Counted from the first letter of the stretch, positions 21,791 to 45,195 are shown. The stretch is 64,000 nucleotides of DNA from Candidatus Nomurabacteria bacterium (GCA_023898565.1 CP060228.1:496594-560593); one strand, 5' to 3'. Program-made: numbers and translations. Notes: generated by a model not told the origin, from the sequence alone.

Positions 21791-21863
21791 TCCGCCCACT
21801 TGGACTCGAACCAAGGACCACAGAGGTATAAGCTCTGCGCTCTACCAACTGAGCTATAGGCGG
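21791..21863 (-). tRNA. tRNA with anticodon UAU (predicted tRNA-Ile reading AUA)
   Basis: The minus strand folds as CCGCCUA-UA-GCUC-AGUUGGUA-GAGC-G-CAGAG-CUUAUAC-CUCUG-UGGUC-CUUGG-UUCGAGU-CCAAG-UGGGCGG-A: an Ile-like D-arm, U33, A37 and anticodon UAU in a 7-nt loop. Confidence 0.7.
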
Positions 21864-27943: not shown

Positions 27944-28063
27944 CCTCACCCCCAAGATGTGGTATCCTAGCAGGCACAAAATTACATAATTTTGAACGAA
28001 GAACAGTGGTCGAAAGCATTTCTGATTACTTACGTAGAGAACAATAGAAGTGTAAAAAGAGTA

Positions 28064-28085
28064 AAAACGGAGACGTGGCTGAGTG
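28064..28085 (+). repeat. Duplicate of the first roughly 20 nt of tRNA-Ser (plus 2-3 upstream nt), 118 nt upstream of the intact gene
   Basis: AAAAACGGAGACGTGGCTGAGTG at 28064-28085 versus AAATACGGAGACGTGGCTGAGTG at 28182-28203. No matching 3' acceptor strand follows, so it is not a tRNA. Confidence 0.6.
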
Positions 28086-28186
28086 CTCAATGAGTAAAGG
28101 AGTCGCAAGACGACTATTACGAATTAGTGTTTAATAGTCCAATGCTCTACAGGTAAAGAAAGAGCTTAGAAGAACAATACAAATAC

Positions 28187-28273
28187 GGAGACGTGGCTGA
28201 GTGGTCGAAAGCACCTCACTGCTAACGAGGCAGGGTCTAAAAGCCCTCGAAGGTTCGAATCCTTTCGTCTCCG
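28187..28273 (+). tRNA. tRNA-Ser (anticodon GCU)
   Basis: GGAGACG...CGTCTCC acceptor, anticodon loop CUGCUAA, long variable arm CAGGGTCTAAAAGCCCTCG and T-loop GGTTCGAATCC. Confidence 0.85.
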
Positions 28274-28384
28274 CACCGAATTTTTAGTATCGGCAAGACC
28301 CGTACGCCTTTATTTTGAGCCGTATTTTCATTGCCAAAGTTCGAATCCCATACCCTCTAAGCAGGTCAAACAATAACCTGCTCA

Positions 28385-28528
28385 TCATAAAGAGAGCAGG
28401 TTATCGAAGATGATAATTGCCGAGCTGACGACACACCCAAGTTGGAGTTACGGTTGTCATCCCAGTAGTTGTTGACGTTCAGACCATCGGAGTCGAAGTT
28501 GCCAACGTTGACGCGGTTGCCGTCTGCG
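28385..28528 (-). pseudogene. 3' remnant of a paralog of the 28897..29739 gene (C-terminal roughly 45 codons only; an upstream in-frame stop precedes it)
   Basis: 28419-28528 is about 80% identical over 110 nt to 28902-29010. The minus-frame translation ...ADGNRVNVGNFDSDGLNVNNYWDDNRNSNLGVSSARQ parallels ...ADGDRVFVGYFASAGLHVGDYWDDLRRSGLGVSSARE. Confidence 0.45.
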
Positions 28529-28896
28529 AACTTTGTCTGTTTCCGTCCGTATCACCAAGACTTGAGAGTCATCTATGTTGGAAACATAGCACTTCTTGTC
28601 TTTGTATTTTATGTAAGAGCACGAGTATTGAGATACTCGATCTCTATAGAAACAGACAAGGAATTATCTCTGTGTGATATACACTCTACATGCACCCAGT
28701 AGGTGCATGTACTCTGGTATAGACTTCAAACAAAGCACTTGTGAGATGAAACCAATAGTCGCACCTACACTAACAAGTACTTACAGTATACAAGAAAATG
28801 CCCCCAGCATGAAAGCCGGGGGCAAAATTTGCATCGAGCTGCTTCGCAACAAGATCAAAGATTCAAGAAGGTCAAGCCTTCAAGTAATCAAGGTTC

Positions 28897-29739
28897 TTAT
28901 TCCCGAGCCGACGACACACCCAAGCCGGAGCGACGGAGGTCATCCCAGTAGTCGCCGACGTGCAGACCAGCGGACGCGAAGTAGCCAACGAAGACGCGGT
29001 CGCCGTCTGCGTCAACCGAGGATGTCCTGACGTAAACGCCACGAAGCAGGTAGACGCCACGCACCTTGTAGTAGGCAGTAACGGCGTAGCTGACTTCGGG
29101 AGTGTTCGGAACACGCTCGTTTTCGGCTAGGAGCTTTTCCTGATCAGCCCACGTTTTGTTGCGGGAATCAGGATACGGCTCCTTACGGATTGCGAGCCAC
29201 ACGCCTGCCTTGACCACGTCCTCACGAGAGAACGTGTGTTGGCTCTCGGCATACCAACCCTCCGACTTGGAGTAGAACAGCTGGTTGTCGAGATCACGAA
29301 CCTGCAAGAGGTTCATGTCGGTCGGTGCTGTCGCCACGAGCATGTAGCCACTGGAGCGGAGCCACATCAGCTCTTCGAAATCGGGCAACGTATTGGCGAA
29401 ATTTGCCAGTTGCTCGTCGCTGTAGCTCCAGCCGTATGCCTTGGCCACATCTTCGGGAGACAGGTAGTCGTCACCGAGAATGAGGCGGGCGAGTTCTTCG
29501 CCATCGGGCAGGGTTGGGTTGATGGTTTCGCCGTTGTTGTTCACTTTCGGACAACCCATTTTGAGGTAGGCGGCCAGATTGCGACGAGCGGTTGTGTTGT
29601 CGATCGGCTTTTGCCAGTCGGCGAGGGTGACCCCTTCGTTTTCGAGAGTGCCAGTCAGCAAACCAAATTTTCTGAAAATTTTGGAAAGCGTGAGTTCTGT
29701 GGATGTCGATTTGGTCATCGGATACCACTCCTTCTTCAC
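28897..29739 (-). CDS. Hypothetical protein (GC-rich; the C-terminal GxYWDDxRxSxLGVSSAR motif is shared with the upstream remnant)
   Basis: 280-aa ORF. A hairpin (GCCCCCAGC...GCCGGGGGC) followed by a T-rich tract lies downstream on the minus strand. No family recognised. Confidence 0.45.
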   Translation of the reverse strand: MKKEWYPMTKSTSTELTLSKIFRKFGLLTGTLENEGVTLADWQKPIDNTTARRNLAAYLKMGCPKVNNNGETINPTLPDGEELARLILGDDYLSPEDVAKAYGWSYSDEQLANFANTLPDFEELMWLRSSGYMLVATAPTDMNLLQVRDLDNQLFYSKSEGWYAESQHTFSREDVVKAGVWLAIRKEPYPDSRNKTWADQEKLLAENERVPNTPEVSYAVTAYYKVRGVYLLRGVYVRTSSVDADGDRVFVGYFASAGLHVGDYWDDLRRSGLGVSSARE

Positions 29740-29775
29740 TAGAAATACCAGAACACCTGGTCATGGATCGCTCGG

Positions 29776-29831
29776 TAATGAGACGAACATTTTGCATATC
29801 AGTCATGACATACAAAATGTTCGTCTCATTA
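29776..29831. repeat. 19-bp perfect inverted repeat TAATGAGACGAACATTTTG / CAAAATGTTCGTCTCATTA with an 18-nt spacer that itself contains GTCATGAC
   Basis: Read directly; it sits between the 497-aa gene stop and the 280-aa gene start, at the GC/AT composition boundary. Confidence 0.6.
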
Positions 29832-29887
29832 AACCTTGAATGTGTAAAAGAACAAGTAATCTATGATAACACGGATTTAGGTAAAAG

Positions 29888-31381
29888 TCAATCTGAAGCA
29901 GTCGTCTTCCACTCAGTCAGTTTGCTTGCTTCTTCTTCAAACCGCTCTAAACTTTTAAACTGTTTTGGTTCTAAATTATGCAGTTCGATACCAGGATCAG
30001 GCAAGAATATCTGCAAGGGATATTTATCCCTGTTGTCATACACCATCTGATTGATATGGTCATCAAGATGACGAAAGCTGAAGTTGAGTAGCTCTACCGA
30101 TTTATCTATTTCAGCTAATTGAGCGTTGATTTTGTATGTCACATCAACCCCAATCATCTCTGACATCCGCTCTGCCACTTCCTTGAAAGCAAGGAGGTAT
30201 TGATAGTTCTCATAGACATGAGACTGATGGAGTAGGTAGTTAGGAAAAGCGAAAAGTATCAGGTCATCAACCTGCTTTTCATACTCAGTCACAAACGCTG
30301 ACTGTGACTTGGACTTCACTAAACTTTTGCCTGAGATGTACGACTTGTTGAGACTCACTTCAAAGAACCGAGTCGGACATTGTTCGGTCTGTATCTTTCC
30401 GTTTTTGATCAGCGTCTTTAGTTTTCGTTCACTTTTGTCTTTCGCCTTGATCCACAACTGCATCAGTTCGTTATGTGGTAGTTTCGTCTCACCTTCATAT
30501 GTTGTATGTCCAGTACAATGACACAGTGGTATGTACTCACTAAAGAATAAGCCGTCACGCACCGTATCACGCACTACCTGCTCCAGCTTGTATCGAAGAT
30601 CACTCAGCACACCAAGCTTGGTGCGTAGATCATCCTCATCTTCGTAGGTTATGTTGTCTCTTGATGCTAGTCGTTTGCCGAACTCAAGCATTGAGTAACC
30701 AGCAAAGTGGGTGTTAAACAACACTTGCTTAATACTAATTTTCGTATCATGCAACGACAGCTCGTGTCCCCACGGAATCTTTTCGATAATGATCTTGGTC
30801 AATGTGTGTACGTCTTCATCAGTTAGAGATTTTTTGCCGTGTACTATTCGAGCTAGTTGTTCTTCAGCTAGGAGGTAGCTATGGTCAGTATCAGCAATTG
30901 AATCAAGGAGTAAGATGTCTGACCGAATGTCTTTTGGTAATGAGTGTAGAGCTATGAGATGTGCTAGTCGGTCATATTCATACCCAGAGTATTGTAAGAA
31001 AAACTGATGCAGTTCTTCTCGCTGATCATCGGGAATAATCCGATCAAGATAATACTTCCATTGTCGCTCGTCGTTCTTTTTAAGATCAAATAAAGTCGCC
31101 GTATGTTCTAGGCGAGATAATGCCAGCATAGTGGTGAGGTAATTAGTTTGCATATCAAACTCCAGTCGCTGGAACATCTCCCAGAGATTGATGTATTGAT
31201 TGTATTTTTCCGCTTCACGATAGTCTTGTGGTTTCCAGTTTATGGTCAGTGCCACCATATCTGCTTCACTAATCAGCTCTTTGCCAGTCTTTTGGAAATG
31301 AGCATCATTGCGGATCACTAAAAGCACTCGCTCTTTCGGCGCTAGGTTTCCTTTGCGTAGCATTTTAGTGATGTCTTTCAT
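29888..31381 (-). CDS. Hypothetical 497-aa protein, last gene of the MTase operon (candidate effector or nuclease of an RM-like system)
   Basis: Long AT-rich ORF with a 3-nt gap to the upstream gene; contains the Cys/His cluster CHCTGH...C. No Walker A or confident nuclease motif was recognised by eye. Confidence 0.5.
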   Translation of the reverse strand: MKDITKMLRKGNLAPKERVLLVIRNDAHFQKTGKELISEADMVALTINWKPQDYREAEKYNQYINLWEMFQRLEFDMQTNYLTTMLALSRLEHTATLFDLKKNDERQWKYYLDRIIPDDQREELHQFFLQYSGYEYDRLAHLIALHSLPKDIRSDILLLDSIADTDHSYLLAEEQLARIVHGKKSLTDEDVHTLTKIIIEKIPWGHELSLHDTKISIKQVLFNTHFAGYSMLEFGKRLASRDNITYEDEDDLRTKLGVLSDLRYKLEQVVRDTVRDGLFFSEYIPLCHCTGHTTYEGETKLPHNELMQLWIKAKDKSERKLKTLIKNGKIQTEQCPTRFFEVSLNKSYISGKSLVKSKSQSAFVTEYEKQVDDLILFAFPNYLLHQSHVYENYQYLLAFKEVAERMSEMIGVDVTYKINAQLAEIDKSVELLNFSFRHLDDHINQMVYDNRDKYPLQIFLPDPGIELHNLEPKQFKSLERFEEEASKLTEWKTTASD

Positions 31382-31383
31382 AG

Positions 31384-31590
31384 TTATCTTCGTTCGCTTA
31401 AGAGTTGCTCCAATACGTCAATACGCTGTTTCAGTTCGAGATTGGAAATGTTCTTCGATAGAGCCAGTGCAAGTCGAGAAATGATCTGCGCTCGCTTGGG
31501 TGAAATTTTGCGAGCGGCCACCTGAAGCAAAGCCTCCGAGAGGATTTCATTAACTTCTTCTAGCGTGAGTGATTTCTTTATGTCGTTCAT
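31384..31590 (-). CDS. Hypothetical 68-aa helical protein
   Basis: Tightly packed (3-nt gaps) inside the operon; coiled-coil-like with a possible HTH. Confidence 0.35.
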   Translation of the reverse strand: MNDIKKSLTLEEVNEILSEALLQVAARKISPKRAQIISRLALALSKNISNLELKQRIDVLEQLLSERR

Positions 31591-31593
31591 ATT

Positions 31594-31986
31594 TTAATAA
31601 TTCTCAATTAGCTCAAACCACGTCTTCACTTCTTTGGACTTTCCGTGCTTGGTGACGTTCTTATATAAAGCCAACACGACATTTGGAGTGAGTTTCCTAG
31701 CCCAAGCACAGGTGTGTTCTACCAAGCCCTCTTCCTCGATAATTTTGTTCCAGTCGGTGAGCGTACCGAGGTCTTTGATGTCATACTGCGCCGCAAAATC
31801 TTTCTGGGTCTTAAGGCGAAGTAGATCAATGACAACTTCGTCTTCGATACCCATCTTGCGTATCACGGCTTCAGGCTGACCACGCAGAAAGGTCGGTAAC
31901 GATTTCCACGTTACGTAGGTGGCGAAGTCCTGCTTACGGTACACACCATCACTTTTCTTCGGTTGTTCATCGTGGGGTGTGCTCAT
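31594..31986 (-). CDS. Hypothetical 130-aa protein
   Basis: Overlaps the upstream MTase gene by 20 nt; no motif recognised. Confidence 0.4.
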   Translation of the reverse strand: MSTPHDEQPKKSDGVYRKQDFATYVTWKSLPTFLRGQPEAVIRKMGIEDEVVIDLLRLKTQKDFAAQYDIKDLGTLTDWNKIIEEEGLVEHTCAWARKLTPNVVLALYKNVTKHGKSKEVKTWFELIENY

Positions 31987-32743
31987 AATTCGTTACCAAT
32001 TTTCGTTTCTGACCAGTCAGTTTCTCAAGTCGCTTGAGTGCAATCTGTACATATTCAGCATCTTGTTCAATTCCAACACACCGTCGACCCAACTGTTCAC
32101 AAGCCAGAGCAGTACTCCCGCTACCCAAGAACCCATCAAATACCACGTCATCAATCTTCGTCACATTCCGAATTAGTTTACGAAGTAGCCCAATTGGTTT
32201 TTGGGTTGGGTGGAGTTTCGATTTTTGTGGTCGTGGGTGGTAGAGCGCACTTCGCATTTGTGAGGCTGGCTTCTTATGCTTGCCGTACCAGCCGTAGGCG
32301 ATGAGTTCTTGCTGGGGTAGATAGTCCATGCGACCCATGACTGGCTGGTTCTTCAGCCATACCAACATCTGACTGAAATGAAACTCAGCCGTGTATATGC
32401 CAGTGCGTAGTGACAAAAACATCGTGTCGCAGTTAAAGACATGGAAGGTGTTGTATGTATCAAGATGGGGCTTGATAGCACCAAGCCATGACTCGGTAAA
32501 GCGAGCGTATTCGTACTCACTTTGCAGATGGTCACCTTTGATATCTTTAGCGTTAGATACACCAAGCTCAGCTACTCCTTCTTTATTCTGAACGTACGCC
32601 ACACCATACGGCGGATCAGTCACAATCGCTTGTACTTTCTGTCCCTGCAGTACTTCAGATACAAAGGAAGCATTACAACTATCACCACAACCAATCAGAT
32701 GTGTGCCGACCAGGTAGATGTCTCCGTGTTGTACCTTTTTCAT
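31967..32743 (-). CDS. DNA methyltransferase, amino-MTase beta class (N6-adenine or N4-cytosine)
   Basis: Motif IV DPPYG near the N-terminus and motif I FDGFLGSGSTALAC near the C-terminus (the beta-class order). Confidence 0.85.
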   Translation of the reverse strand: MKKVQHGDIYLVGTHLIGCGDSCNASFVSEVLQGQKVQAIVTDPPYGVAYVQNKEGVAELGVSNAKDIKGDHLQSEYEYARFTESWLGAIKPHLDTYNTFHVFNCDTMFLSLRTGIYTAEFHFSQMLVWLKNQPVMGRMDYLPQQELIAYGWYGKHKKPASQMRSALYHPRPQKSKLHPTQKPIGLLRKLIRNVTKIDDVVFDGFLGSGSTALACEQLGRRCVGIEQDAEYVQIALKRLEKLTGQKRKLVTNYEHTPR

Positions 32744-34023
32744 ACGCGCTTGGCTGTTTGTTTGGTAAATTTCTCCCAGCGATCGATGATGGCACTGGCA
32801 AACACGGGATCAAGTTCGACGCCATACCACTTGCGATGCAATTGTTCGCAAGCGATAAGATCACTGCCACTGCCGCCAAAACCAGAGAACACTACGTGAC
32901 CAGGAGCGGTACAACGCTTGAGTGGTTTTTCACTTAAGCCAACCGGCTTCTGAGTCGGGTGCAAATACTCTTGCACGTTGTCCCGCTTCACAATCCAGAG
33001 GTCGATCATGTCGAGTAGCTCGTCATGAAGTTGGTTGCCGCTGGTTATTTTTTGATTAAGAATCTCGTTGGTGTTTTTGAGATTTTGATTTAGGTACGGC
33101 TTTCCACTTGTACCGTATACACACGGTTCATGTACTCGGTTAAAGGCAGTCTGCGGAGTTGGGTTTTGATTATTCTTCACCCACGAGCATAACCGCTTAA
33201 AAGTGATCTTGTGTTCCTTATACAGTGACTGAATATCACCAATGTATTTAGCATCACACCAGAAGAAATAGTGGGATTTGGGTAGAGCTATCTTGTGTGA
33301 GGTAGCAATACTGTTTGCAAGAAACTTTTGGTATTCAGCATCAGTCTTCGAGTCATCTTTAGCTGAGTACTTGCCTCCATAATTCTTGCCACTACCGATA
33401 CCTTTGTCATATGAGAGACCGATATTATAGGGCGGGTCTAGATAAATGAGGTGCGCTTTTGCTTCACCCATGAGTTTGGTAACCAGCTTTTCATTGGTAG
33501 AATCTCCGACCAAGAGGCGATGATCACCTAACTGCCAAATCTCTCCAAGCTTGGCTCGTGGCTCATCCATTTCTTCAATCGCTTTTTCAACATCATAGTC
33601 ATCTTCAGCGAGTTCGACATCATCGAAGAAACCTTGTAATTCTTCATCAGCAAATCCAACATCAAGTAAGACGTCGAGATCAAATGCTTTTAGCAATTCT
33701 TCATCCCACGAACCAGTGTTATGGTTCAAGCGAAGGTTTAACTCTCGCTCTTCTTCGAGCGTGAGTTCCCGAGAGGGAATCATACACTCGACTTCCTTGT
33801 ATCCAAGGTCAGCGTATATCTTTACTCGCTGTTCACCCCCGATCAGCACATCTGCTCGTGAGCCGATGTTTAGTACGACTGGTACAACTGCACCAAACTC
33901 CTCGATTGATTTTTGGAGATTGTGTCGTTCTTCTCCCTCCATCTTGCGTGGATTGTATCCATTGGGCGTGAGGTCTTGCACCTTACGCTTCGTGGATGAC
34001 CACGTTATCTTTTTTGACTTCAT
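32740..34023 (-). CDS. ParB-like nuclease domain fused to a DNA methyltransferase (beta-class amino-MTase)
   Basis: N-terminal ParB/Srx-like LTPNGYNPRKM...VLIGGEQRV, then DPPYN (motif IV) and C-terminal FSGFGGSGSDLIAC (motif I). Overlaps the downstream MTase by 4 nt. Confidence 0.85.
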   Translation of the reverse strand: MKSKKITWSSTKRKVQDLTPNGYNPRKMEGEERHNLQKSIEEFGAVVPVVLNIGSRADVLIGGEQRVKIYADLGYKEVECMIPSRELTLEEERELNLRLNHNTGSWDEELLKAFDLDVLLDVGFADEELQGFFDDVELAEDDYDVEKAIEEMDEPRAKLGEIWQLGDHRLLVGDSTNEKLVTKLMGEAKAHLIYLDPPYNIGLSYDKGIGSGKNYGGKYSAKDDSKTDAEYQKFLANSIATSHKIALPKSHYFFWCDAKYIGDIQSLYKEHKITFKRLCSWVKNNQNPTPQTAFNRVHEPCVYGTSGKPYLNQNLKNTNEILNQKITSGNQLHDELLDMIDLWIVKRDNVQEYLHPTQKPVGLSEKPLKRCTAPGHVVFSGFGGSGSDLIACEQLHRKWYGVELDPVFASAIIDRWEKFTKQTAKRV

Positions 34024-34185
34024 ACATAATGTTGCTTAGGCACACTGTTCGTGTGTTATGTATGATTATCGAAGGAATCAGAGCTTTAAAATAGGTCGAG
34101 CAAATCCGAGCAAACGCAAAAAACGCCTTGTGTTACCAAGACGTTTTTTGTTAATCCACAGACTTGTTTACGCTGGTTTGCTCAG

Positions 34186-35340
34186 CTACAGGTTATTTCT
34201 AAAAGTGATGTAGTCGTCAGTGGCTTCGAGCACCATCTCTCTAGTGTCGGGTCGCAGATTATCGACCCCATTATCCTTTAAGAAGTTATGAAATGACTTA
34301 GCACTCTTGCCGACATTAGATCGATACTTGTCAGATGATCGTTCGTCAGGCGGTAGTAGCTCTTTGAACTTTTTAATTGATATCTTCTCTTGATTTGCTG
34401 GCATGTACTTGAGAATGTTTTTAAACAGTTTGATGTACATTGGGTCACCTTCGCCTCGTAGTTTGTATGTGAGTTTTTCTGATTTGCTGTGATGATAAAT
34501 GTTGCCATCCTTAAGATAAAAGATACTGTTCGCAACAGTCTCTTTGGTGTCATCCTCGTCATTATTCATAATGATTGAGTTGTGAATGCGCTCCAAATCA
34601 CTATGGAATCGTCGACGACCAAAGTAATCACTAGATCGAATATCGCCTGACATGAGTTTTGCGTATTCCTTATGCCGACTATTCTCAAGTAATTTACCCA
34701 TAAAATTTTTCGTCGTTGCATCGAAACTGATACTGTTATTGCTGAAATAGATCATTTCTTGATACCCCTCTGTTAAACGAGTGAGTGCTCCAGCATAGTC
34801 ACTGATATCTTGACGCATGAAGACTTCCTCAGCTCCCAGGTACGCTTTTATATTTTTCGTTACGGTAATTTTCTTATCGCTTAGTTGGTTTGTCGATTCT
34901 ATCTTTTGATCAAGAAATTCATTAGCCTCATCATAATATTCTAGTTCGATCAGCCTTCTTACAAAATCAAAGATCTCACTTTGCATCGTATCAAAACGAT
35001 TACCGCCAATGACTGTGGTAGAGCCATCTAGTAAACTATCAAGATCTTCTATGCTCGATGCAATTACAGGATCTTCCTTAACATCTAGTTTGTCTGCAAT
35101 CTTGTTGAACTTACTTTGAATTTTGATGATTTCTTTCAGTAGCTCATCCCGTTGTTTTTCTAAGGTTTCCAGCCTTTGCTTGCGTGCAATGATATCGGTA
35201 CCTAAGTGGAGAAGTAGGTCTGTGCCATGTTCAGCTAAAAAGCCAATATAGTCCTGAAAAGCAATCACGAAACTCCGATCTAAAACCTTACTGTATAGAG
35301 TGTCGAACAGTAGTTTCTCCTTATTTAACAAGCTATTCAT
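34186..35340 (-). CDS. Hypothetical 384-aa protein (AT-rich; its own transcription unit)
   Basis: Long ORF followed by an A/T-flanked hairpin at about 34118-34150 on the minus strand; no motif recognised. Confidence 0.45.
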   Translation of the reverse strand: MNSLLNKEKLLFDTLYSKVLDRSFVIAFQDYIGFLAEHGTDLLLHLGTDIIARKQRLETLEKQRDELLKEIIKIQSKFNKIADKLDVKEDPVIASSIEDLDSLLDGSTTVIGGNRFDTMQSEIFDFVRRLIELEYYDEANEFLDQKIESTNQLSDKKITVTKNIKAYLGAEEVFMRQDISDYAGALTRLTEGYQEMIYFSNNSISFDATTKNFMGKLLENSRHKEYAKLMSGDIRSSDYFGRRRFHSDLERIHNSIIMNNDEDDTKETVANSIFYLKDGNIYHHSKSEKLTYKLRGEGDPMYIKLFKNILKYMPANQEKISIKKFKELLPPDERSSDKYRSNVGKSAKSFHNFLKDNGVDNLRPDTREMVLEATDDYITFRNNL

Positions 35341-35532
35341 AAAGAGATGATAGCATTTTTCAGTATTCTAATGTGAAAAGCGAAAGTGCTCTATAATTGG
35401 CATTGTTTGGCATTTGGAGACCCCGACCCGTAGACATCAGAAAATCTGACGACCAGTCGCTAAAATACCCTTATGGGGTCTACAGCGTGGGGTACTTAAC
35501 CCGAGTGGCCCGCCGTTTAGAGCTGGCACGAA

Positions 35533-36207
35533 GTGCTTATGTTGAAGAAATTTTGGGAACAAAACAAACATCAACTCCAGTTAGTTGGAATACTTATTGG
35601 TGTGGGAGCACTTTTTCTTTCGATACCAATTCCTGAGATTGAGGAGGCTGCAGAGGCATTGAAAAAGATTCAACTAATTTGGCTACTGATAGTAACAATT
35701 TCAACAGGGTTACTATTTGTAAACTTGCATAAGTTATCAAGACTCTACGAAATTGATAGTACGAAGGATAAGGATAGTTTTAATTTTGATGAAACAATAT
35801 CAATTGTAATTGGACTAACAATTGCATATTTCATTAGTAATATGTGGATATATGCCTATTCACTATATCGGGAAGTAATTTTTGATTTCATTGAAACTGT
35901 ACAATTTGGAATCACTGCATTTTTAGTGGCAGTCACATACCACTGTTGGAGAAAAATAGTTCTAAAGTTTGAAAATCACAATCCGAAACTTAGAGTCTGT
36001 ATAGCAATTACAGGTCACGCTATTAATGCGTTGCTACTCGGTGCTTGGCTACATGTTTCAATTAATAGTTGGGAATTCGTTTTGAATGAATGGCTGTATT
36101 GGTCAGTTGGAACTTTTGTGGTCATGATGGCCATGGGTTTGATGATTGATTGGAAAAGAAAAAGCGAAAGCGCTCGAGACACTATCGAACCTGAAACTGA
36201 AAAGTAG
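35533..36207 (+). CDS. Hypothetical integral membrane protein (about 6 TM)
   Basis: Multiple hydrophobic helices; AT-rich. Confidence 0.45.
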   Translation: MLMLKKFWEQNKHQLQLVGILIGVGALFLSIPIPEIEEAAEALKKIQLIWLLIVTISTGLLFVNLHKLSRLYEIDSTKDKDSFNFDETISIVIGLTIAYFISNMWIYAYSLYREVIFDFIETVQFGITAFLVAVTYHCWRKIVLKFENHNPKLRVCIAITGHAINALLLGAWLHVSINSWEFVLNEWLYWSVGTFVVMMAMGLMIDWKRKSESARDTIEPETEK

Positions 36208-36301
36208 TTAATCGGTCAAGCAGGGCTCGGTACCATACGGTTCTTGCTCGAGACCAACACGAGACAGATGTCTCGTGCTGGTTTTGCGTTATAATTACAC
36301 T

Positions 36302-37426
36302 ATGAAAAAGATTCTTTTAATAATGTCAGTGGCCTGTGCCGTTGTAGTGTTATTCATTGCTCTGGCAGGTATGTATAAGTTTAACTACTTAGCTTCTTTG
36401 CCTGGGTATGATGTTGATGGTAATCAGATTGAAACAACTGATGCTTTTGAAGTGGTTGAAGTGTTAGGTCAAAGTTGTCAATCTGATAACGATTGCGAAA
36501 CTCCAGCAGCCTATGCAATACAGTCGAATTGTCCATACGACTCGGTATGTATTGCAAATAGTTGTGCTGTTGTTTGTCCGCACCCGTTTTCAGGGTCGTC
36601 AATTGATGTTGCTGGCCCGAAGAACGCCGCCTACACGCTAGATGGTGAAACGGTGACTCTGGTTGATGGTGTATCTGAAGCAGAAGTAGCACCTGATTCG
36701 ACAACTAAAATCATCACGCGGTATTTTGGTAACGAAGTACAAACTGATCTCAACAACGATGGTCGTACAGATGCTGTATTTTTACTCACTCAAGAAACAG
36801 GTGGTACGGGAACATTTTTCTACGTTGTTGCGGCGCTCAATACTAAAGACGGGTGGGTCGGATCTCGTGGATACTTTTTGGGGGATCGAATAGCGCCGCA
36901 GTCCACTGAAGTAAGCAGAAACATAAATCATAAGAATGTGATAGTGGTTAATTATGCCGACAGAGAAGACGGCCGGCCGATGTCTGAACAACCGTCTGTT
37001 GGTAAAAGTGTTTGGTTGAAACTAGATATAGACTCAATGACTTTTGGTGAGGTTGTACAAGATTTCGAAGGAGATGCTGATCCAAATGTGATGACGCTTA
37101 ATATGCAGATATGGACATGGGTTAAAACTCAGTACAACAATGATACTGAGTTTACTCCAAACCAAGCAGAAGCGTTTACTCTTGCTTTTACAGAAGAGGG
37201 GACAATTTCAGCTACAACTGATTGTAATTCTATGCATGGTACCTACGAACTCCATGAGAATGAAATTACGTTTGGTCCAATGGCGATGACCAGAATGTTT
37301 TGTGCAGAATCGCAAGAGCAGGAATTTGCAGAAATGTTATCAAAAACTCAATCATATTTTTTTACATCAAGAGGAGAGCTCGTTTTTGAACTGAAGGACG
37401 ACGCTGGCTCGGCGATATTTCGTTAA
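36302..37426 (+). CDS. Secreted/membrane-anchored protein with a Cys-rich segment and a C-terminal META (HslJ-like) domain
   Basis: Signal/TM MKKILLIMSVACAVVVLFIALAG; CQSDNDCETP...CPYDSVCIANSCAVVCP; C-terminal TTDCNSMHGTYELHENEITFGPMAMTRMFC, which is META-domain-like. Confidence 0.5.
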   Translation: MKKILLIMSVACAVVVLFIALAGMYKFNYLASLPGYDVDGNQIETTDAFEVVEVLGQSCQSDNDCETPAAYAIQSNCPYDSVCIANSCAVVCPHPFSGSSIDVAGPKNAAYTLDGETVTLVDGVSEAEVAPDSTTKIITRYFGNEVQTDLNNDGRTDAVFLLTQETGGTGTFFYVVAALNTKDGWVGSRGYFLGDRIAPQSTEVSRNINHKNVIVVNYADREDGRPMSEQPSVGKSVWLKLDIDSMTFGEVVQDFEGDADPNVMTLNMQIWTWVKTQYNNDTEFTPNQAEAFTLAFTEEGTISATTDCNSMHGTYELHENEITFGPMAMTRMFCAESQEQEFAEMLSKTQSYFFTSRGELVFELKDDAGSAIFR

Positions 37427-37463
37427 AACTAACGTGCACTAAATACCTAACAACAGACGATGG

Positions 37464-38402
37464 ATGGTTTGTTATACTGCGGTAATGAATAAACAGGAAA
37501 TGATTGCTGAATTTGCAATTCGGTCGTCATTAGTGAAAGATCCGAAGGTATCATTTTTGGCTGGAGGCTTTGGGAATGAAAACTATCTGATACAAGAGGG
37601 TGATTTACAGTACGTGCTTCGTCTTAAGAAGAGTGATGAACCGCAATTCCGTGATTCGCTAGAGCGTGAATACATATTTTTAAAGTACTACAATGAGTGT
37701 GGTGTAGTATTTTGTCCCAAGGCACTGTATTTTGATTCGAGAGACAACTATCTCATTGAGAGTTTTCTGCCCGGAAAGCTTACTCTGTTAAAAGATTTTA
37801 CCAATGAGCAAGTCGATCAATTTGCTAGGCAGTTGGCCAGTCTGTTTCATCTTAGCGTGCCAGACTTCTATGTCTTTTGTACAAAAAACAATCTAAGAAA
37901 ATATAAGCAAGAAGACCCAATCTCTCTCCTGCAAAAATATGGGTTTGAGCGCTTAGCTGAAGCTAAGCGGTATGGGTTTTCGGGAGAGTCTGCGGCTTGG
38001 CTAGAAGGCTCTTTAAACGAAAATTTGGAATATTTTGAAAATCAAAGTGTAACTGCTGAGCTGGGATTTTCCTGGGGCGATGTGCAGTCAAGTCTGATTA
38101 TTGGCCCAGGCGACGAAATGTACTTTTACGATTTTGAACATACGGTAATTTCTGACTTTAATGATCTGGCATATATTAAAATTCACAGCGGTTTTGATTC
38201 AAGGCAGTTGGAATATTTTGTTGAAAGATGTGCGAAGTATCTCAATAGAAGTACGGATTCTTTAATTTTTAGTATGAATGCTAGTGAGAAAGCAATTCGA
38301 ACCAATGATGCAATTTGGGCCGCGTGGCAGTGGTCTCAAACTGGTGATGCTAGCTTTGAACAAATGTTACATGAGCGGATTGCTTTAGTGAAAGGTTTGT
38401 AG
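37464..38402 (+). CDS. Phosphotransferase-family (APH/choline-kinase-like) protein kinase-fold enzyme, possibly degenerate
   Basis: N-terminal GFGNENYLI...VLRLKK (nucleotide-binding loop and Lys) and a DFE (cation-binding) motif; the catalytic loop is atypical. Confidence 0.4.
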   Translation: MVCYTAVMNKQEMIAEFAIRSSLVKDPKVSFLAGGFGNENYLIQEGDLQYVLRLKKSDEPQFRDSLEREYIFLKYYNECGVVFCPKALYFDSRDNYLIESFLPGKLTLLKDFTNEQVDQFARQLASLFHLSVPDFYVFCTKNNLRKYKQEDPISLLQKYGFERLAEAKRYGFSGESAAWLEGSLNENLEYFENQSVTAELGFSWGDVQSSLIIGPGDEMYFYDFEHTVISDFNDLAYIKIHSGFDSRQLEYFVERCAKYLNRSTDSLIFSMNASEKAIRTNDAIWAAWQWSQTGDASFEQMLHERIALVKGL

Positions 38403-38536: not shown

Positions 38537-40441
38537 TTACAGGTTAGGCTGCGAACGAATTTCGGGCACGGCACCCCGATAGATCACTGTGGTGTAATCA
38601 TCGGGGTCTGTTTCCGATACGAAATTGTAGCGGTCAAAGAGTGAGCGCATGCGTGGGTTTTTGCTGGCAAAGGTAATCGCGTGCAGTTCCTTCACACCCT
38701 TAGCGCGTGCCCAGTCCACCAGGGCTTCCATGAGGTGCGTACCGATGCCCAGGCCTTGCAGTTCGCTGTGGCGCGAGAATGACACTTCGTATGAGCCCTC
38801 ACTGGTCTGGAAGGCGTGAGCGATGCCGATGATGTAACCTCCTTGCTCCATGACGAATACGCCGTGATGGTTGTAATCCAAGGTGCTGTCGTACAACTTA
38901 ATCAGCCGACTTGAGGCTGTCAGGGTTTCGACAGGCATACACGAAAAGTATCGCGTTTCACGATCTCCTTTAGAAAGATGCGGAATGTACTCCCGGATGA
39001 GCTCGATATCTTCGTGGGTGGCTGGACGCACGATTGCTTCGCTGTCGTTGCGCAGCGTGACCAAGCGGGGAGTGATGGAATCAACTCCTTGCATAGCCGG
39101 CAGCGTTCTGACGTGTTTGGCAATTTGCGTGCGCAAATCAGGGTGCACAATCTGCAACATTCGCGACACCCGAGTTCGATCATCGACCATGCGCAGATCG
39201 GCCAGGCCATACTCCGTAACGATGACGACCGGCAAATCGGCACTGATGGTGTGATGCGCTCCTTCAGGGAGAGTTGGCACAATCTTGCTGATCACCGCGT
39301 CGCCACTTTTTGCAGTGCTCGGCAGTGCAATGAATGACAGACCGCCTTCGGCCCAGGTAGCACCAAGCGCAAAGTCGTTCTGTCCGCCGACGTCTGAGTA
39401 GTAGTGTCGCTGCCGGGTGGCAGCTGCTACTTCACCAGCCAGACTGACTGCCAGTGTGGTGTTTACACTGACCATGTGCCGGTTCTGTTTGATGAGTCCA
39501 GGATCATTGACGAATTGCTGTGGCAAGACCAGGAAGTGCGGATTTTCGTGCATGGTGTCGTAGAGATCTCGACTGCCAAGCACAAAGCCGACAACAGCAT
39601 GGTCGCGCAGATTGGTGCCGCCAGCGCGTTTGATGAGTCCTTTTCGGTACAGGTCCAAAACTCCGTCAGAGAACATCTCTGACCACACGCCTTCGATGCA
39701 CCGATTTTGTGCCGCCAACTGAGCGGCAATGGCATTTGGAATTGCACCAATGCCAAGCTGCAGTATGTGGGGAAGCGTACCGTTTGGAAGAATGTCTTTT
39801 TCGAGCTCTCCCATGATATGTTCAGCAATTTTCTGAGCTGACAAAGCTGCCTCAGCTTTGGGTATCATGGTATGTTCGAGAAGGGGTTGGTCAATGTGAA
39901 CAACAACATCAAAGTCACGTAGATACATTGGGCAGCCGCTCTCGTAGTGCTGGTTTGTTTCGGGATCAAAGTACTGCCCGATATGCCAGCGCGGCATTTG
40001 CGCATTGACGACGGCAATCTTGAATCGAGCAGCTTTGACAGCTGCGTCGTCGAGTCCAGCGTTGAGACCGAGAGTAACTCGCCCCGCTTCGTCCGGCAGA
40101 GATACATGTGCAAAGGCGACATCGGGTCGCCAGGCACCGTCATACAGTCGATGTACCTGCGAGAGGTTGCAGCGGATATTCTTGGCGAGTCCAGCGTTCA
40201 CCAGAGCGCGGACGCCCGGGCCGATAAAAGCGGTGACTGGTGTTACGCCACCAGCAACTGCTTTAGCCCAGTCGTTTGCCTTGCCGAGCGAGAGAAGTTG
40301 AAAGACTTGTGTGCCCTTGATTTGTTGAGCATTGTCGAAAATCCAGCGCTCGACGTCAGTGATGACGGCGGTGTTGCCCGGCAGGTAGCAAACTGACTGT
40401 TTTGAGCCATTCTTTTGCAGCTTGGCTGCGGCTACTGCCAT
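38537..40441 (-). CDS. Fusion protein: acetyl-CoA hydrolase/transferase family domain (about 440 aa) plus a C-terminal GNAT acyltransferase domain
   Basis: SDVGGQNDFALGA, matching the SGVGGQxDF motif of 4-hydroxybutyrate/acetyl-CoA transferases, then a GNAT-like C-terminus (HGVFVMEQGGYIIGIAHA...LQGLGIGTHLMEALVDWARAKG). Confidence 0.6.
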   Translation of the reverse strand: MAVAAAKLQKNGSKQSVCYLPGNTAVITDVERWIFDNAQQIKGTQVFQLLSLGKANDWAKAVAGGVTPVTAFIGPGVRALVNAGLAKNIRCNLSQVHRLYDGAWRPDVAFAHVSLPDEAGRVTLGLNAGLDDAAVKAARFKIAVVNAQMPRWHIGQYFDPETNQHYESGCPMYLRDFDVVVHIDQPLLEHTMIPKAEAALSAQKIAEHIMGELEKDILPNGTLPHILQLGIGAIPNAIAAQLAAQNRCIEGVWSEMFSDGVLDLYRKGLIKRAGGTNLRDHAVVGFVLGSRDLYDTMHENPHFLVLPQQFVNDPGLIKQNRHMVSVNTTLAVSLAGEVAAATRQRHYYSDVGGQNDFALGATWAEGGLSFIALPSTAKSGDAVISKIVPTLPEGAHHTISADLPVVIVTEYGLADLRMVDDRTRVSRMLQIVHPDLRTQIAKHVRTLPAMQGVDSITPRLVTLRNDSEAIVRPATHEDIELIREYIPHLSKGDRETRYFSCMPVETLTASSRLIKLYDSTLDYNHHGVFVMEQGGYIIGIAHAFQTSEGSYEVSFSRHSELQGLGIGTHLMEALVDWARAKGVKELHAITFASKNPRMRSLFDRYNFVSETDPDDYTTVIYRGAVPEIRSQPNL

Positions 40442-40580
40442 GACTTCAGCAATGGTATTGAGGATGCGTTACGACATGGTGCTTCTCCTTGTAGAAAAAG
40501 TAGTGTGACAAAAAACTATAAATCCGCCAGATAGTCTACTCGCGAAAAGGGTGTTGTCAATTTGAGGTGGCGGTGGCAAT

Positions 40581-40621
40581 AAAATCAGCCGGCGCGGACG
40601 AAGTCCGCGCCGGCTGATTTT
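40581..40621. terminator. Long A/T-flanked hairpin downstream of the nitroreductase gene
   Basis: AAAATCAGCCGGCGCGGACGAAGTCCGCGCCGGCTGATTTT. Confidence 0.65.
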
Positions 40622-40637
40622 ATTAAGTGTTACACCG

Positions 40638-41267
40638 CTAGATTTTTTTTACAATATCCTCCAAATCTTTGCGCACTTTCGGATAGTGTTGCCAAGCGTC
40701 ATCGGGTGCACGGTAGCCAAGTGCGAGGATTACCGTGGCGTGAAGGTTGTATTCCTTCAGGCCAAGAATCTCATCATATTGGTCTGGATCGAAGCCGAGC
40801 ATGGCATGGTTGTCTACCTCCGCCTCAGACGCAGCGGCCATCACGGTACCAAGTGCAATAAAAGCTTGATTGGCTGCCCAGTGGGCACGGTTTTCTGGAG
40901 TGCGATTACCCAAATCGCCATTCATGGTGTTTTTAATACCTTCTGCTACATCAGCTGGGAGCTGACGAGCGTCAGCAAGACGGTCGACGTATTCACCAAT
41001 AAACGCTTCATCTATATCGGTACGAGTTGCAAACACAATAAGAGCACTGTTGTATCCTGCGTGCTCCTGTCCGTAGCTGGCGGGGATGAGTCTTTCTTTT
41101 ATGACTCGGTCTTTCACCACCATCATTTCAAACGGCTGGAGACCGTAGGCAGTAGCCGCAAGATTGCCTGCGGTGAGAATCTCGGTAAGTGTCTCTTCTG
41201 GAATGTCTTTGTTGGTATCAAACTTCTGGGTGGCGTAGCGCCACTTGAGCGCATCAATAATGTGCAT
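40638..41267 (-). CDS. Nitroreductase-family NAD(P)H-dependent oxidoreductase
   Basis: N-terminal RYATQKF motif, and the length and pattern of NfsB-like nitroreductases. Confidence 0.75.
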   Translation of the reverse strand: MHIIDALKWRYATQKFDTNKDIPEETLTEILTAGNLAATAYGLQPFEMMVVKDRVIKERLIPASYGQEHAGYNSALIVFATRTDIDEAFIGEYVDRLADARQLPADVAEGIKNTMNGDLGNRTPENRAHWAANQAFIALGTVMAAASEAEVDNHAMLGFDPDQYDEILGLKEYNLHATVILALGYRAPDDAWQHYPKVRKDLEDIVKKI

Positions 41268-41366
41268 AATGATTTTAATAATTTACAAAATAAACCATTA
41301 GAGTGTAGCAATGAAAGTATACAAAGTAAACCTTTAAAAATGTGTAAAAGGTGGTAGTATGTCGTC

Positions 41367-41678
41367 ATGAAGAAAAAGCCACAGATTTGTAGCGAGTGCC
41401 CCGTTAGCAATACGGCCAAAATCGTTGGAGATTTTTGGTTATTACTTATAGTCCGCTCACTTCTCGACGGACCAAAGCGTTTCAATGAATTGGCGGAATC
41501 ACTCCATGGCATTAGTCGTCGAACGCTTACGCAGAAACTTCACAAAGCAGAGGATGAAGAGCTGGTTGTACGTCATGAGTACGCCGAAGCGCCACCGCGA
41601 GTGGAATACAAACTAACTCCGCGCGGCAAGAAGATGCGCGCCATCATTAAGGCGGTAGAAACATTCACCAAGGGGTAG
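41367..41678 (+). CDS. HxlR-family winged-helix transcriptional regulator
   Basis: CPV...IGDFWLLLIVRSLLDGPKRFNEL...ISRRTL...L...GLV.R; divergent from the nitroreductase gene. Confidence 0.75.
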   Translation: MKKKPQICSECPVSNTAKIVGDFWLLLIVRSLLDGPKRFNELAESLHGISRRTLTQKLHKAEDEELVVRHEYAEAPPRVEYKLTPRGKKMRAIIKAVETFTKG

Positions 41679-41689
41679 TGTAAGAAACA

Positions 41690-42301
41690 GTGCTTTCTCG
41701 TGTAGTAATAAGTGAGCAGGCAAGAGTCCTGCTTCGCACTTTGCAAAGGCAACCTTATTACGTAGTTGAAATAGAAAACCGAATGATAAAACAGATAGTG
41801 ATTCCAGCAGCAGCCTTTTTGGTGACTGCAACTGCGGTGAGTGCCTATAGTAATCCAGATTGGTTACATAACCTTGATATCGACCTCACCGATGATCAGG
41901 TATCAGCGCTCGAAGAAGCACACGAAATTAGACAGGCGGCCGATGAAGAAGCCCGCCAAGTGCTTGAGAATGCTGGACTTGATGAAGACAAGATGCACGA
42001 AATCCGCGATGCGATGCATGAGGAGCGAAAAGCTCATCACGAAGCAGTCGAGGCGGCACTTGAAGCTGGAGACTATGACGCTTTTACAGAGGCAATCGCC
42101 GATTCTCCATTTGCTGACGCAATCACATCAGAAGCTGACTTTGAGAAATTCAAAGAAGCTCATGATTTGCGTGAAGCAGGGGATGATGAAGCAGCAGCAG
42201 CCATCATGTCAGAACTTGGGATTGAACGCCCAGAACGCGGCATGAAAGGTGGTCATCGTGGCGACCGCGGCGAAGGAAACTTTGATGAACCTAGTTTTTA
42301 A
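41690..42301 (+). CDS. Periplasmic acidic helical protein, LTXXQ (CpxP/Spy-like) candidate; the likely start is the internal MIKQIV Met at about 41784
   Basis: Signal-like AAAFLVTATAVSA, an LTDDQ motif and repeated acidic helical segments. Confidence 0.4.
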   Translation: MLSRVVISEQARVLLRTLQRQPYYVVEIENRMIKQIVIPAAAFLVTATAVSAYSNPDWLHNLDIDLTDDQVSALEEAHEIRQAADEEARQVLENAGLDEDKMHEIRDAMHEERKAHHEAVEAALEAGDYDAFTEAIADSPFADAITSEADFEKFKEAHDLREAGDDEAAAAIMSELGIERPERGMKGGHRGDRGEGNFDEPSF

Positions 42302-42423
42302 GGAGAGCTTCGCTCGACTATAAAAACGGAAATGCTCCTGTGGCGGTCCTGACCAAGAGAGCTAGGTCGGCAGTCAGTCAGAGTGAGTCACGAAGGATTT
42401 GCTCAAAACCTATACCAGAAAAA

Positions 42424-42449
42424 GCGCGGCCCGAAGGGCCGCGCTTTTT
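42424..42449 (+). terminator. Intrinsic terminator
   Basis: GCGCGGCCCGAAGGGCCGCGC followed by TTTTT. Confidence 0.65.
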
Positions 42450-42489
42450 GTAATACGAATCGGTTTTCAGTGTAATATACAAAGAGCGT

Positions 42490-43044
42490 ATGAATGAAAT
42501 ATTGAGTGATGAAGCAATTGCCGAAGCTGTACAAAATGGTAAGGTTTCCGCTTTTGGTGAGCTTGTTTCGCGCTATGAAGCAAAATTAAAACGATACGCT
42601 CGCAAGTTTCTCTCTCGCGAAGAGGATATTGAAGACTTGGTGCAAGACGTTTTTATAAAGGCCTACGAGCATATTCAATCGTTTAATACTGAACTGCGTT
42701 TTTCGCCGTGGATATATCGCATTGCACACAACGCGTTTGTGAATGAGCTCAGACGAAAAAGTCGCTACGGATTTGGCCTCTTTGATGCTGATGCAATTTT
42801 GCCGCTCATTGCTGCGCCAGAAACTGCGGACCAGGATGCACTTGATGGTGAAGTCCGCGCTGAGCTTGAAAAGTATCTCGCGACACTGGCACCCAAGTAT
42901 CGTGAAGTAATTGTGTTGCATTACTTCGAAGATCTATCGTATCAAGAGATAAGTGACGTGTTACAGGTGCCGGTAAATACCGTGGGAGTGCGCATGACAA
43001 GAGCAAGAGCACAACTAAAGAAGATTATAAGTAATGCTGCATAA
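42490..43044 (+). CDS. ECF-type RNA polymerase sigma factor (sigma-70 regions 2 and 4)
   Basis: Region 2 DLVQDVFIKAY...PWIYRIAHNAFVNELRRK and region 4 LSYQEISDVLQVPVNTVGVRMTRARAQLKK. Confidence 0.85.
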   Translation: MNEILSDEAIAEAVQNGKVSAFGELVSRYEAKLKRYARKFLSREEDIEDLVQDVFIKAYEHIQSFNTELRFSPWIYRIAHNAFVNELRRKSRYGFGLFDADAILPLIAAPETADQDALDGEVRAELEKYLATLAPKYREVIVLHYFEDLSYQEISDVLQVPVNTVGVRMTRARAQLKKIISNAA

Positions 43045-43047
43045 CGT

Positions 43048-44004: not shown

Positions 44005-44090
44005 TGGCTAGCTATCCTTTACGAATTAATTAATTTTTTGTAAGGTACAAGATGGCCACTATCGGTCGATGACTGAAAAAGGAGTTCTTT

Positions 44091-44324
44091 GTGTCTACAC
44101 GCAAATCTTCCAGCAAGAAACAAGCTTCTGGTCAACAAAAAAAGACTTCGGTCGTTAAGCAGGCGCGTGTCAATCGTCGGCTGAGAGCTGCAGCGAAGCG
44201 TCTGGCACGTGAAAAAAGTCGGCAGGGTCACCAGCAGGCGACACTCAATGGCTTCGTGCATCACCAGCGGACAAAGGGGAAGAAAGTCTCCAAGCGGGAG
44301 GCGGCTAAGCAGTTACTGGCTTAG
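44091..44324 (+). CDS. Small Lys/Arg-rich basic protein (77 aa)
   Basis: SD AAAAAGGAG precedes a GTG start and the ORF is followed by a terminator hairpin; the sequence is K/R/Q/A-rich throughout. Confidence 0.45.
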   Translation: MSTRKSSSKKQASGQQKKTSVVKQARVNRRLRAAAKRLAREKSRQGHQQATLNGFVHHQRTKGKKVSKREAAKQLLA

Positions 44325-44344
44325 TTCCAGGCTCACGAGAGCAA

Positions 44345-44371
44345 ACAAAAGCGGCCTATGGCCGCTTTTTG
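44345..44371 (+). terminator. Intrinsic terminator
   Basis: AAGCGGCCTATGGCCGCTT followed by TTT. Confidence 0.6.
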
Positions 44372-44457
44372 ATGTACCAGACATGCCTGATTCATTGACA
44401 AAAAGCTTATTTACATACATAATATTCACAATAAAACGTTCTTTTTAGGAGGAAATA

Positions 44458-45126: not shown

Positions 45127-45134
45127 TGATTGTA

Positions 45135-45169: not shown

Positions 45170-45195
45170 AATAAAAACACGCCTACAAGCAGTGC

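Follow-up and report, generated by a model that had tools for sequence, protein, structure and literature searches.

We have analysed a window of 64,000 nucleotides from Candidatus Nomurabacteria bacterium (GCA_023898565.1, CP060228.1:496594-560593; all positions count from its first letter), and concentrate on the stretch that runs from a tRNA-Ser(GCU) gene to the comF-pilM genes, in which an initial annotation had placed an accessory region of about 10 kb (28,064 to 38,402). Our data indicate, with a probability that we would put at roughly 0.8, that this stretch, which belongs to the chromosome of an ultra-small bacterium of the Patescibacteria, is a horizontally acquired patchwork which includes a decayed fragment of an island mobilised by large serine recombinases (LSRs), and that this fragment carries an orphaned and frozen diversity-generating retroelement (DGR). 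Judged by comparison with other genomes and metagenomic contigs, the patchwork is made up of a 7.2-kb island fragment, a three-gene AT-rich block and further non-syntenic genes up to comF.

The retroelement is visible in a repeat of some 110 nt that had been read as the remnant of a gene's 3' end. The repeat itself is genuine, with 28407-28528 matching 28890-29011 over 122 nt at 81% identity, but reading it as a gene remnant or a recombination scar is mistaken, because its mismatches are adenine-specific: read on the minus, coding strand, 17 of the 18 in the 109-nt core fall on adenines of one copy, whose core holds 26 A in 109 nt (binomial P=3.7e-10). A functional DGR copies the transcript of a template repeat (TR) into cDNA with errors introduced at adenines, and this cDNA takes the place of a variable repeat (VR), as in the prototype mtd/TR/avd/brt system of Bordetella phage BPP-1. 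Mismatches that are nearly confined to adenines of the non-coding copy thus identify the two copies, on sequence grounds, as such a pair, with the TR at 28407-28528 (minus strand, rich in AAC codons) and the VR at 28899-29011 (minus strand), where it forms the last 37 codons of a target gene at 28897-29739 (minus strand) that encodes 280 aa (p280; 273 aa according to gene callers). The other differences gather at the repeat's 3' extremity, as expected for the initiation-of-mutagenic-homing sequences IMH versus IMH*.

One might still suppose that recombination left the non-coding copy behind as what remains of the 3' end of a gene duplicate or paralogue, given that it occupies non-coding sequence downstream of the gene, is 81% identical to it and sits in a segment that is polymorphic between strains. 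We regard this as highly improbable. Decay would have to strike adenines of one copy only, and between genomes it is the non-coding copy that is near-invariant and the gene copy that varies: the TRs of the window and of the related contig L171 differ at 1 nt in the 109 core positions and the VRs at 18 sites. The same pattern recurs at three non-homologous target genes, with 20/21 mismatches on adenines in L171/L173, 19/20 in L174 and 18/18 in L169, in target proteins that are not homologous outside the VR. Furthermore, genes for Avd and a reverse transcriptase (RT) directly follow in the syntenic relatives, an RT being present in L171-L177 and L169, and the Avd of L171, at 84.5 bits, exceeds the cut-off of 80 set for the NCBIfam equivalog model DivGenRetAVD (NF033474). 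What is left of avd in the window is its last five codons and stop (28359-28376, plus strand), recognised by alignment with L171/L173, in which the full gene follows. Between this remnant and the TR is a hairpin (28375-28402), also conserved in L171/L173, which is probably a bidirectional terminator. In the intact relatives the avd and RT genes are called on opposite strands and adjoin each other without a gap (L171 11343-12734), an arrangement seldom met in DGRs. A weak match to the Rfam RT-16 RNA between VR and TR (24.6 bits, gathering score 50) does not recur in relatives and was treated as chance.

The 280-aa protein belongs to a large family that is widespread in Patescibacteria, and the columns that vary in the family alignment are the codons that contain adenines in the TR. 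Some of its members, from two other genomes, stand among housekeeping genes with no local TR; a scan of viral contigs for p280 found nothing. The best PDB match of an AF2 model (pLDDT 75) is the C-terminal domain of Bd2740 (prob 0.95, E 0.1). It may be that the DGR once diversified a C-terminal ligand-binding surface of this protein. A clade of cellular DGRs (clade 2) restricted to the candidate phyla radiation (CPR) is known (Roux et al. 2021, PMC8144416). For annotation, the lesson is that a repeat resembling a gene remnant can be the signature of a DGR, that scans which require an RT will miss orphaned TR/VR pairs, and that such pairs record past hypermutation.

Homologues of the 280-aa protein and of a 497-aa protein encoded nearby led us to a set of contigs (L171-L179) which, together with L169 (IMG/VR UViG_3300000970_000154), carry a recurrent island. 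L171/L173 align with the window from 34210 to 28358 at 91% nucleotide identity and from 35550 to 34550 at 74%, the alignment stopping inside avd. L169 matches 29846-34012 over 4.17 kb at 88.7%, and a 119-nt non-coding block at 35395-35513 at 95%. The order from 35550 to 29846 is colinear with the island family; the operon within it shows 89-91% nucleotide identity to L171 and L169, and its proteins are 93-98% identical to theirs, with the exception of a ParB-domain methyltransferase (MTase) that is 89.7% identical to that of L169. Window positions 28,358-35,550 are accordingly best described, by alignment, as a 7.2-kb internal fragment of a family of mobile islands of ~14-18 kb. Intact members begin with a conserved terminal block that precedes a variable gene (p38x), and contain an LSR (440-451 aa), the variable gene (257-384 aa), the ParB-MTase, a second MTase, p128/130, p68/70 and p489-497, followed by the target gene, ~0.5 kb of further sequence, Avd (115 aa) and RT (346 aa), and then by Type III Res (765 aa) and Mod (563-600 aa) proteins and sometimes DUF2779. 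Often a second LSR (426-441 aa) lies at the other end. The LSRs of the islands (426-451 aa) have Resolvase, Recombinase and Zn_ribbon_recom domains, and one variant of the island lacks the DGR and has Mrr, SNF2 and Type ISP restriction-modification (R-M) genes in its place. One island occurs at 99.9% identity in three different left-hand contexts, from which it follows that the island, so far as alignments can tell, is or recently was mobile.

None of the island's other enzymes is left in the window: apart from the last five codons of avd, the 64 kb gave no hit when searched by tblastn for Avd, RT, Res, Mod, DUF2779 and the LSRs (six of which were used). The absence of an integrase, transposase or relaxase, already remarked upon in the initial annotation, is borne out by Pfam searches of the open reading frames scanned (in the outer parts, those of 170 aa or more; in the central 16-44 kb, the main ones), by precomputed Pfam assignments for 28.5-48.6 kb and by the tblastn searches with LSRs. 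The suggestion of a decayed integrative element has likewise gained substance, in that the fragment is colinear with LSR-bounded islands elsewhere and has lost both recombinases.

Given that the closest DNA match is held in the IMG/VR viral collection, the fragment might alternatively be a prophage remnant. The IMG/VR contig does carry the operon, ParB-MTase fusions match phage families (phrog_498), and DGRs were first found in phages. On the other hand, none of the five island versions examined has a capsid, tail, portal, terminase or lysis gene, the matches to PHROGs are confined to the MTases, p497 has no viral structural match, and the cargo, with its R-M, Shedu-like and Mrr genes, is of the kind that characterises defence islands. 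A viral origin therefore seems improbable to us, and we return to the LSR-mobilised island as the source of this DNA.

The setting of the fragment is consistent with horizontal acquisition. The malic enzyme encoded 1.3 kb upstream of tRNA-Ser is 81% identical to that of the nearest genome, a closed Ca. Nomurabacteria metagenome-assembled genome (CP060229.1, hereafter L009), and 71-84% identical to those of seven metagenomic contigs, which together with L009 make up a comparison set of eight related tRNA-Ser loci. The gene order HlyD, tRNA-Ile, RecG, malic enzyme, tRNA-Ser is kept across these relatives. By contrast, the sequence 3' of tRNA-Ser differs from that of the window in 8/8 loci, and none of the eight carries any of the genes found at 28.3-45.2 kb of the window, even at E=1, so the region is indeed accessory, as had been proposed. 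Variation also extends to the other flank: the slot between malic enzyme and tRNA-Ser is occupied by a desaturase in the window, and by a ZIP transporter, by an open reading frame that we labelled MFS-like by eye, or by nothing in relatives. In L009, a split LSR abuts and overlaps the 3' end of tRNA-Ser, with unrelated cargo and an IS behind it. Variable flanks, an LSR abutting the tRNA of the nearest genome and copies of tRNA fragments in several relatives (described below) together mark tRNA-Ser(GCU), in our comparison, as a recombination hotspot of this lineage, much as the initial annotation had suggested.

The extent proposed for the region needs revision. In L096, tRNA-Ser is followed by one small gene and, after ~1 kb, by comF-pilM-pilB-pilT-pilC, the counterpart of which starts at 45,196 in the window. 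As L096 runs from tRNA-Ser straight to comF-pilM, the variable accessory interval appears to be ~17 kb long, reaching ~45.2 kb, and not 10 kb. Nor does the 10-kb region form a single unit with natural limits: 28358-35550 is one unit and 35.5-38.4 kb another, and non-synteny persists to ~45.2 kb. The turn to AT-rich sequence past the tRNA is real but uneven. Measured against 2-kb windows outside the region (mean GC 0.484, sd 0.022), GC falls to a minimum of 0.381 at 34-36 kb (z -4.8), tetranucleotide z-scores reach 5.9, and the shift is strongest at 33-38.5 kb; the MTase operon is mildly low in GC (z -1 to -2.6), whereas the first 1.5 kb after tRNA-Ser is not AT-rich at all, the p280 gene having a GC of 0.56. 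The mildly low GC of the operon, and the occurrence of p280-family genes among housekeeping genes in other Patescibacteria, might be taken to mean that the region is ancestral chromosome whose AT-richness merely follows from local gene content. There is very little room for this idea, since the genes are missing at 8/8 related tRNA-Ser loci, nucleotide identity to islands in unrelated, recombinase-flanked contexts is ~90%, and one island occupies three different contexts.

The tRNA-Ser gene is intact, with its annotated limits of 28187-28273 reproduced by Rfam and extended to 28274 by ARAGORN (plus strand), and it is surrounded by fragments of tRNA sequence. The duplicated 5' end noted previously is a 26-nt copy at 92% identity (28063-28088, plus strand) that includes 19 exact nucleotides (28067-28085 = 28185-28203), a match never seen in shuffled sequence. 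To this we add an exact 14-nt copy of the D-arm (28005-28018, plus strand; 0 expected by chance) which was absent from the earlier list and looks like the remnant of an older tRNA copy. Upstream of both lies a conserved promoter-like box, TGGTATCCTAGCAGGCACA (27958-27978, plus strand), found by comparing the upstream sequence of the eight loci by eye; it stands ~210 nt from the tRNA in the window as against ~45 nt in relatives without upstream fragments, and its role as a promoter is our inference. Downstream, the T-loop-like motif that had been called a weak copy, GTTCGAATCC at 28339-28348, turns out to be the window's sole occurrence of that sequence outside true tRNA genes. Its extension to 18 nt (28339-28356) matches the tRNA-Ser 3' end of the nearest genome at 16/18 positions, and it forms part of a putative tRNA-3'-like remnant or recombination half-site, CCAAAGTTCGAATCCCATACCCT (28334-28356, plus strand), that sits 64 nt past tRNA-Ser.

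Scars of these kinds are also present in relatives. The 3' end of the tRNA, from within the T-loop onward, recurs as a direct copy 125-175 nt downstream of the gene in L092, L095 (39 nt by eye, of which 20 exact nucleotides were confirmed by blastn) and L096, a decayed copy lies downstream in L089, and partial 5' copies are found upstream of the tRNA in L009 and L096. We therefore consider that these fragments reflect repeated recombination at tRNA-Ser and, on the same comparison, that they do not delimit the present island. The downstream modules of 125-175 nt (L092 3060-3190, L095 7349-7540, L096 6109-6290 and L089 11378-11560) share a layout of a terminator, an inverted partial tRNA-3' copy split by a hairpin and a terminal direct tRNA-3' copy, and may be miniature integrated elements or att scars. 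Separately, a degraded tRNA-Ser copy that covers two thirds of the gene, from its start through the anticodon arm, is found in L096 at ~5830-5880, where it immediately follows the native promoter box and lies ~190 nt upstream of the intact gene; the functional tRNA-Ser of L096 may have been supplied by inserted DNA.

The junction between island and chromosome was examined in metagenome assemblies of the same species (L001, L006, L007 and L008), which were found by look-ups of exact proteins. L006 and L007, two independent assemblies, lack a 421-bp segment that is present in the window (28357-28777) and comprises the avd remnant, hairpin, TR and spacer, with the deletion junction at 2903 in L006 and 2935 in L007. 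This deletion and the truncation of the island share the same left endpoint, directly after GTTCGAATCCCATACCCT (28356/28357). A fixed endpoint combined with variable reach suggests site-specific events, in the form of nested deletions, at the old junction of island and chromosome. Microhomology was considered as a cause of the 421-bp deletion and ruled out, only 1 nt being shared. Just beyond the terminal block of the island in L169 is a perfect palindrome of 41 bp, AGTTCGAATCCCTTAGTG-ATGAA-CACTAAGGGATTCGAACT (6201-6241); one of its arms shares 16 nt (CCAAAGTTCGAATCCC) with the junction site of the window (28334-28349), and the palindrome could be a recombinase site.

These assemblies also bear on whether the join of island and tRNA-Ser could be a chimera of assembly or binning, as might be feared with a metagenomic source and a window-type junction that was seen once. 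L006 and L007 join desaturase, tRNA-Ser, remnant, p280 and p497 at 100% and 99.5% identity, and the 421-bp deletion is all that sets them apart from the window, which makes an artefact most unlikely.

As to the present state of the retroelement, the VR is identical in L001, L006, L007 and L008, the few differences between them clustering in p497; this identity was judged at the level of assemblies. With no RT or Avd in cis, a VR that is fixed and a TR that has been lost in some strains, the DGR looks frozen, the variable protein being held in one state, and it is probably best regarded as dead and its target as orphaned. An active DGR with RT and Avd supplied in trans from elsewhere in the genome would account for an intact TR that differs by 1 nt from that of an RT-bearing relative, and for an intact target gene; remote arrangements may also exist, as other family members stand far from any TR or RT. 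Against continued activity are the lack of RT or Avd in 64 kb, the identity of the VR in four same-species assemblies from different samples and the deletion of the TR in two of them, and so we think activity unlikely, though it deserves more weight than the alternatives considered above.

Taken together, these observations lead us to propose the following history. The island would have sat with an LSR end against tRNA-Ser, in the geometry seen in the nearest genome; a deletion starting from the junction on the tRNA side would then have taken out LSR, R-M system and RT together with nearly all of avd; and the remainder, having no recombinase, would no longer be able to excise. A broader reading, which we offer tentatively and think less likely to be right than wrong, is that the operon, the fast-evolving gene beside it and the ~100-nt terminal block could be the self-maintaining core of an undescribed group of LSR-mobilised Patescibacteria islands that shuttle DGRs and R-M or defence genes, and that the nested deletions could be 'suicide' deletions catalysed by the recombinase at the T-loop-like half-site. 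If this were true, such deletions would explain how islands become fixed, integrase-less residents beside tRNA-Ser.

Several observations weigh against our interpretation and need to be set beside it. No copy of the island family was seen next to tRNA-Ser, L171-L179 having no tRNA within 10 kb, and the recombinase of L009 is ~40% identical in its catalytic domain and is accompanied by different cargo. No distal tRNA-Ser 3' fragment marks an island end, there being no other copy within 3 mismatches in the window. The 28356/57 junction occurs only in the window, the other assemblies being of the deletion type or starting at 28537 (L001 too shows the part from 28537 upward). RT and Avd are absent in cis from the 64-kb window, and an RT elsewhere in the genome could still exist. 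The AF2 model of the target recovers C-type lectins only at E>3, a weak lectin-like signal in which the fold is not clearly recovered. Finally, no source was traced for the block at 35.5-38.4 kb.

Comparison with known systems is instructive here. The locus resembles characterised DGRs in having a TR/VR pair of ~110-120 nt, a VR at the 3' end of the target gene, adenine-specific mismatches, an AAC-rich TR, non-adenine differences limited to the 3' end of the repeat in an IMH-like manner, and syntenic relatives with Avd and RT beside the TR; it differs in that the RT is absent, avd is reduced to five codons, the VR is monomorphic and the TR has been lost in some strains. Elements mobilised by LSRs include SCCmec with ccrAB, Tn4451 with TnpX and those that use integrases of the phiC31/Bxb1 type. 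The intact relatives are like these in carrying one or two LSRs at their ends and in the appearance of one island in several contexts, and unlike them in that the att sites of the islands are undefined and no RDF was identified; the window copy has no recombinase. With islands integrated into tRNA genes, as captured in the Islander/TIGER concept (PMC4383910), the region shares accessory DNA directly past a tRNA, copies of tRNA fragments, deviating composition and absence from relatives. It departs from them in lacking an integrase and a distal displaced tRNA fragment and in having 5'-end fragments upstream of the tRNA, which is atypical, and the related intact islands use large serine rather than tyrosine recombinases, none having been seen at a tRNA. 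Genomic islands with Type I R-M systems have been predicted by IslandViewer in Patescibacteria (PMC12455944) and are similar in their defence-type cargo, horizontal acquisition and occurrence in CPR genomes, but the architecture of LSR, DGR and MTase-p497 is not in the text of that paper, which contains neither 'recombinase' nor 'retroelement'. Since DGRs in CPR (PMC8144416) and R-M islands in Patescibacteria (PMC12455944) are already known, the locus fits known kinds of element.

Current understanding is not overturned by this locus, which is an instructive and essentially ordinary case of island decay. Its value for CPR biology lies in offering a dated snapshot of such decay in a streamlined genome, in which the recombinase, the enzymes of the retroelement and the restriction genes were lost and the methyltransferases and a variable protein of surface type were kept, and in pointing to a recurrent island family with conserved core proteins p497, p130 and p68 as a lead.

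The part of the fragment that has been kept is dominated by a five-gene operon on the minus strand. It comprises a 427-aa fusion of ParB_N and N6_N4 DNA methyltransferase domains (32740-34023; Pfam, phrog_498 and PADLOC), a 258-aa N6/N4 DNA methyltransferase (31967-32743; Pfam, PHROGs and PADLOC), p130 (31594-31986), p68 (31384-31590), which is small and conserved in the island copies, and p497 (29888-31381), the last gene, whose product is all-alpha. Beyond the operon is p384 (34186-35340, minus strand), and an inverted repeat with 26-nt arms (29776-29831), conserved in L171/L173, separates the p497 and p280 genes. The gene content proposed earlier agrees with Pfam, which recognises two N6_N4 MTases, one with ParB_N, as well as the META and APH domains discussed below. 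PADLOC and PHROGs recognise the MTases only, and p130, p68, p497 and p384 have no match in Pfam, PADLOC, NCBIfam or the PDB. For p497 there is no match to a nuclease-like fold and none among viral proteins by structure, and the predicted fold, although modelled confidently, appears to have no known relative. No restriction enzyme is recognisable beside the two MTases by Pfam, PADLOC, NCBIfam or PDB searches.

The operon is intact, and since amino acid identity exceeds nucleotide identity in its genes (for example 97.0 vs 89.6%), they remain under purifying selection; in p280, amino acid identity is below nucleotide identity. The MTases most likely still methylate DNA, as orphan enzymes with a self-protective function. 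Their profile matches to orphan or phage-type ParB-domain MTases (phrog_498; PADLOC MTase_II/oMTase) are strong for both proteins, and the difference from those systems is the strictly conserved five-gene operon with three proteins that lack family matches. The p384 protein is 58% identical to that of L171 (66.6% at the nucleotide level) against 94-97% for the flanking operon genes, and 35% identical in another island copy against 54-78% for its flanks, and an unrelated 257-aa gene takes its place in L169. Such behaviour resembles that of a specificity or arms-race gene. Within p497, same-species differences cluster in two short patches (30485-30632 and 30565-30794), mostly with 3-nt spacing; elsewhere in the 20 kb there are almost no differences, a distribution that suggests gene conversion from a related allele.

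The conserved non-coding block at the island end (35395-35513, minus strand) was delimited by alignment of island copies. A block of ~100-120 nt is present in every copy although the adjacent gene varies, with the pattern GCGGGC..GTTAAGTRCCCCA..TAAGGG..GGGTCGGGG (L169 6302-6420; L171 ~4212-4330; L174 ~4196-4300; L178 ~2619-2720). The contexts of identical islands part exactly at its outer edge (L174, L175 and L176), and homology of the window to L171 ends at ~35550. Additional genes (an LSR, or Tmk-RNR-CYTH) separate the block from the promoter of the operon in L174 and L178. Rfam gave no match for the block, its folding z-score (-1.38) is insignificant and its three sequence types lend no covariation support; a scan of viral contigs with its pattern gave no new copies. 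The LSR ends of L171, L174 and L169 showed no tRNA-like site.

In L174, from a second genome, an intact member of the island family is likewise separated by a few kb from comF-pilM and is oriented as it is in the window (L174 1-4180 compared with 38.5-46.9 kb), the PilM proteins being 55% identical; this may reflect either a shared old insertion or a site preference.

Adjoining the island fragment is the three-gene block that is the most AT-rich part of the region (35533-38402, plus strand; Pfam and composition). It encodes a 224-aa multi-TM protein, a 383-aa Cys-rich META-domain protein and a 312-aa APH-like kinase, is in no island copy and has no relatives in the fetched loci or viral contigs, a scan of the latter specifically for the META protein having found nothing. 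The genes that follow (38537-45195), which are absent between tRNA-Ser and comF in L096, include an acetyl-CoA hydrolase/GNAT fusion, a nitroreductase, HxlR, an ECF sigma factor and a GGDEF protein, among others. The closest homologues of the acetyl-CoA hydrolase/GNAT fusion (38537-40441), leaving aside a same-species cluster at 98%, are 60-63% identical, with one from Kaiserbacteria among the top three and many from Betaproteobacteria next at 55-57%. Its GC of 0.54 is above the local average, and the gene is likely to be a separate horizontal acquisition; the context of its homologue was of no help in placing a boundary.

Outside the variable interval, the conserved tRNA-Ile gene upstream (21790-21863) has the anticodon UAU (TAT in the gene). 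It is also present in L009, L089, L090, L091 and L099 and so is conserved in the lineage, tRNA-Ile(UAU) being an uncommon means of reading AUA in bacteria.

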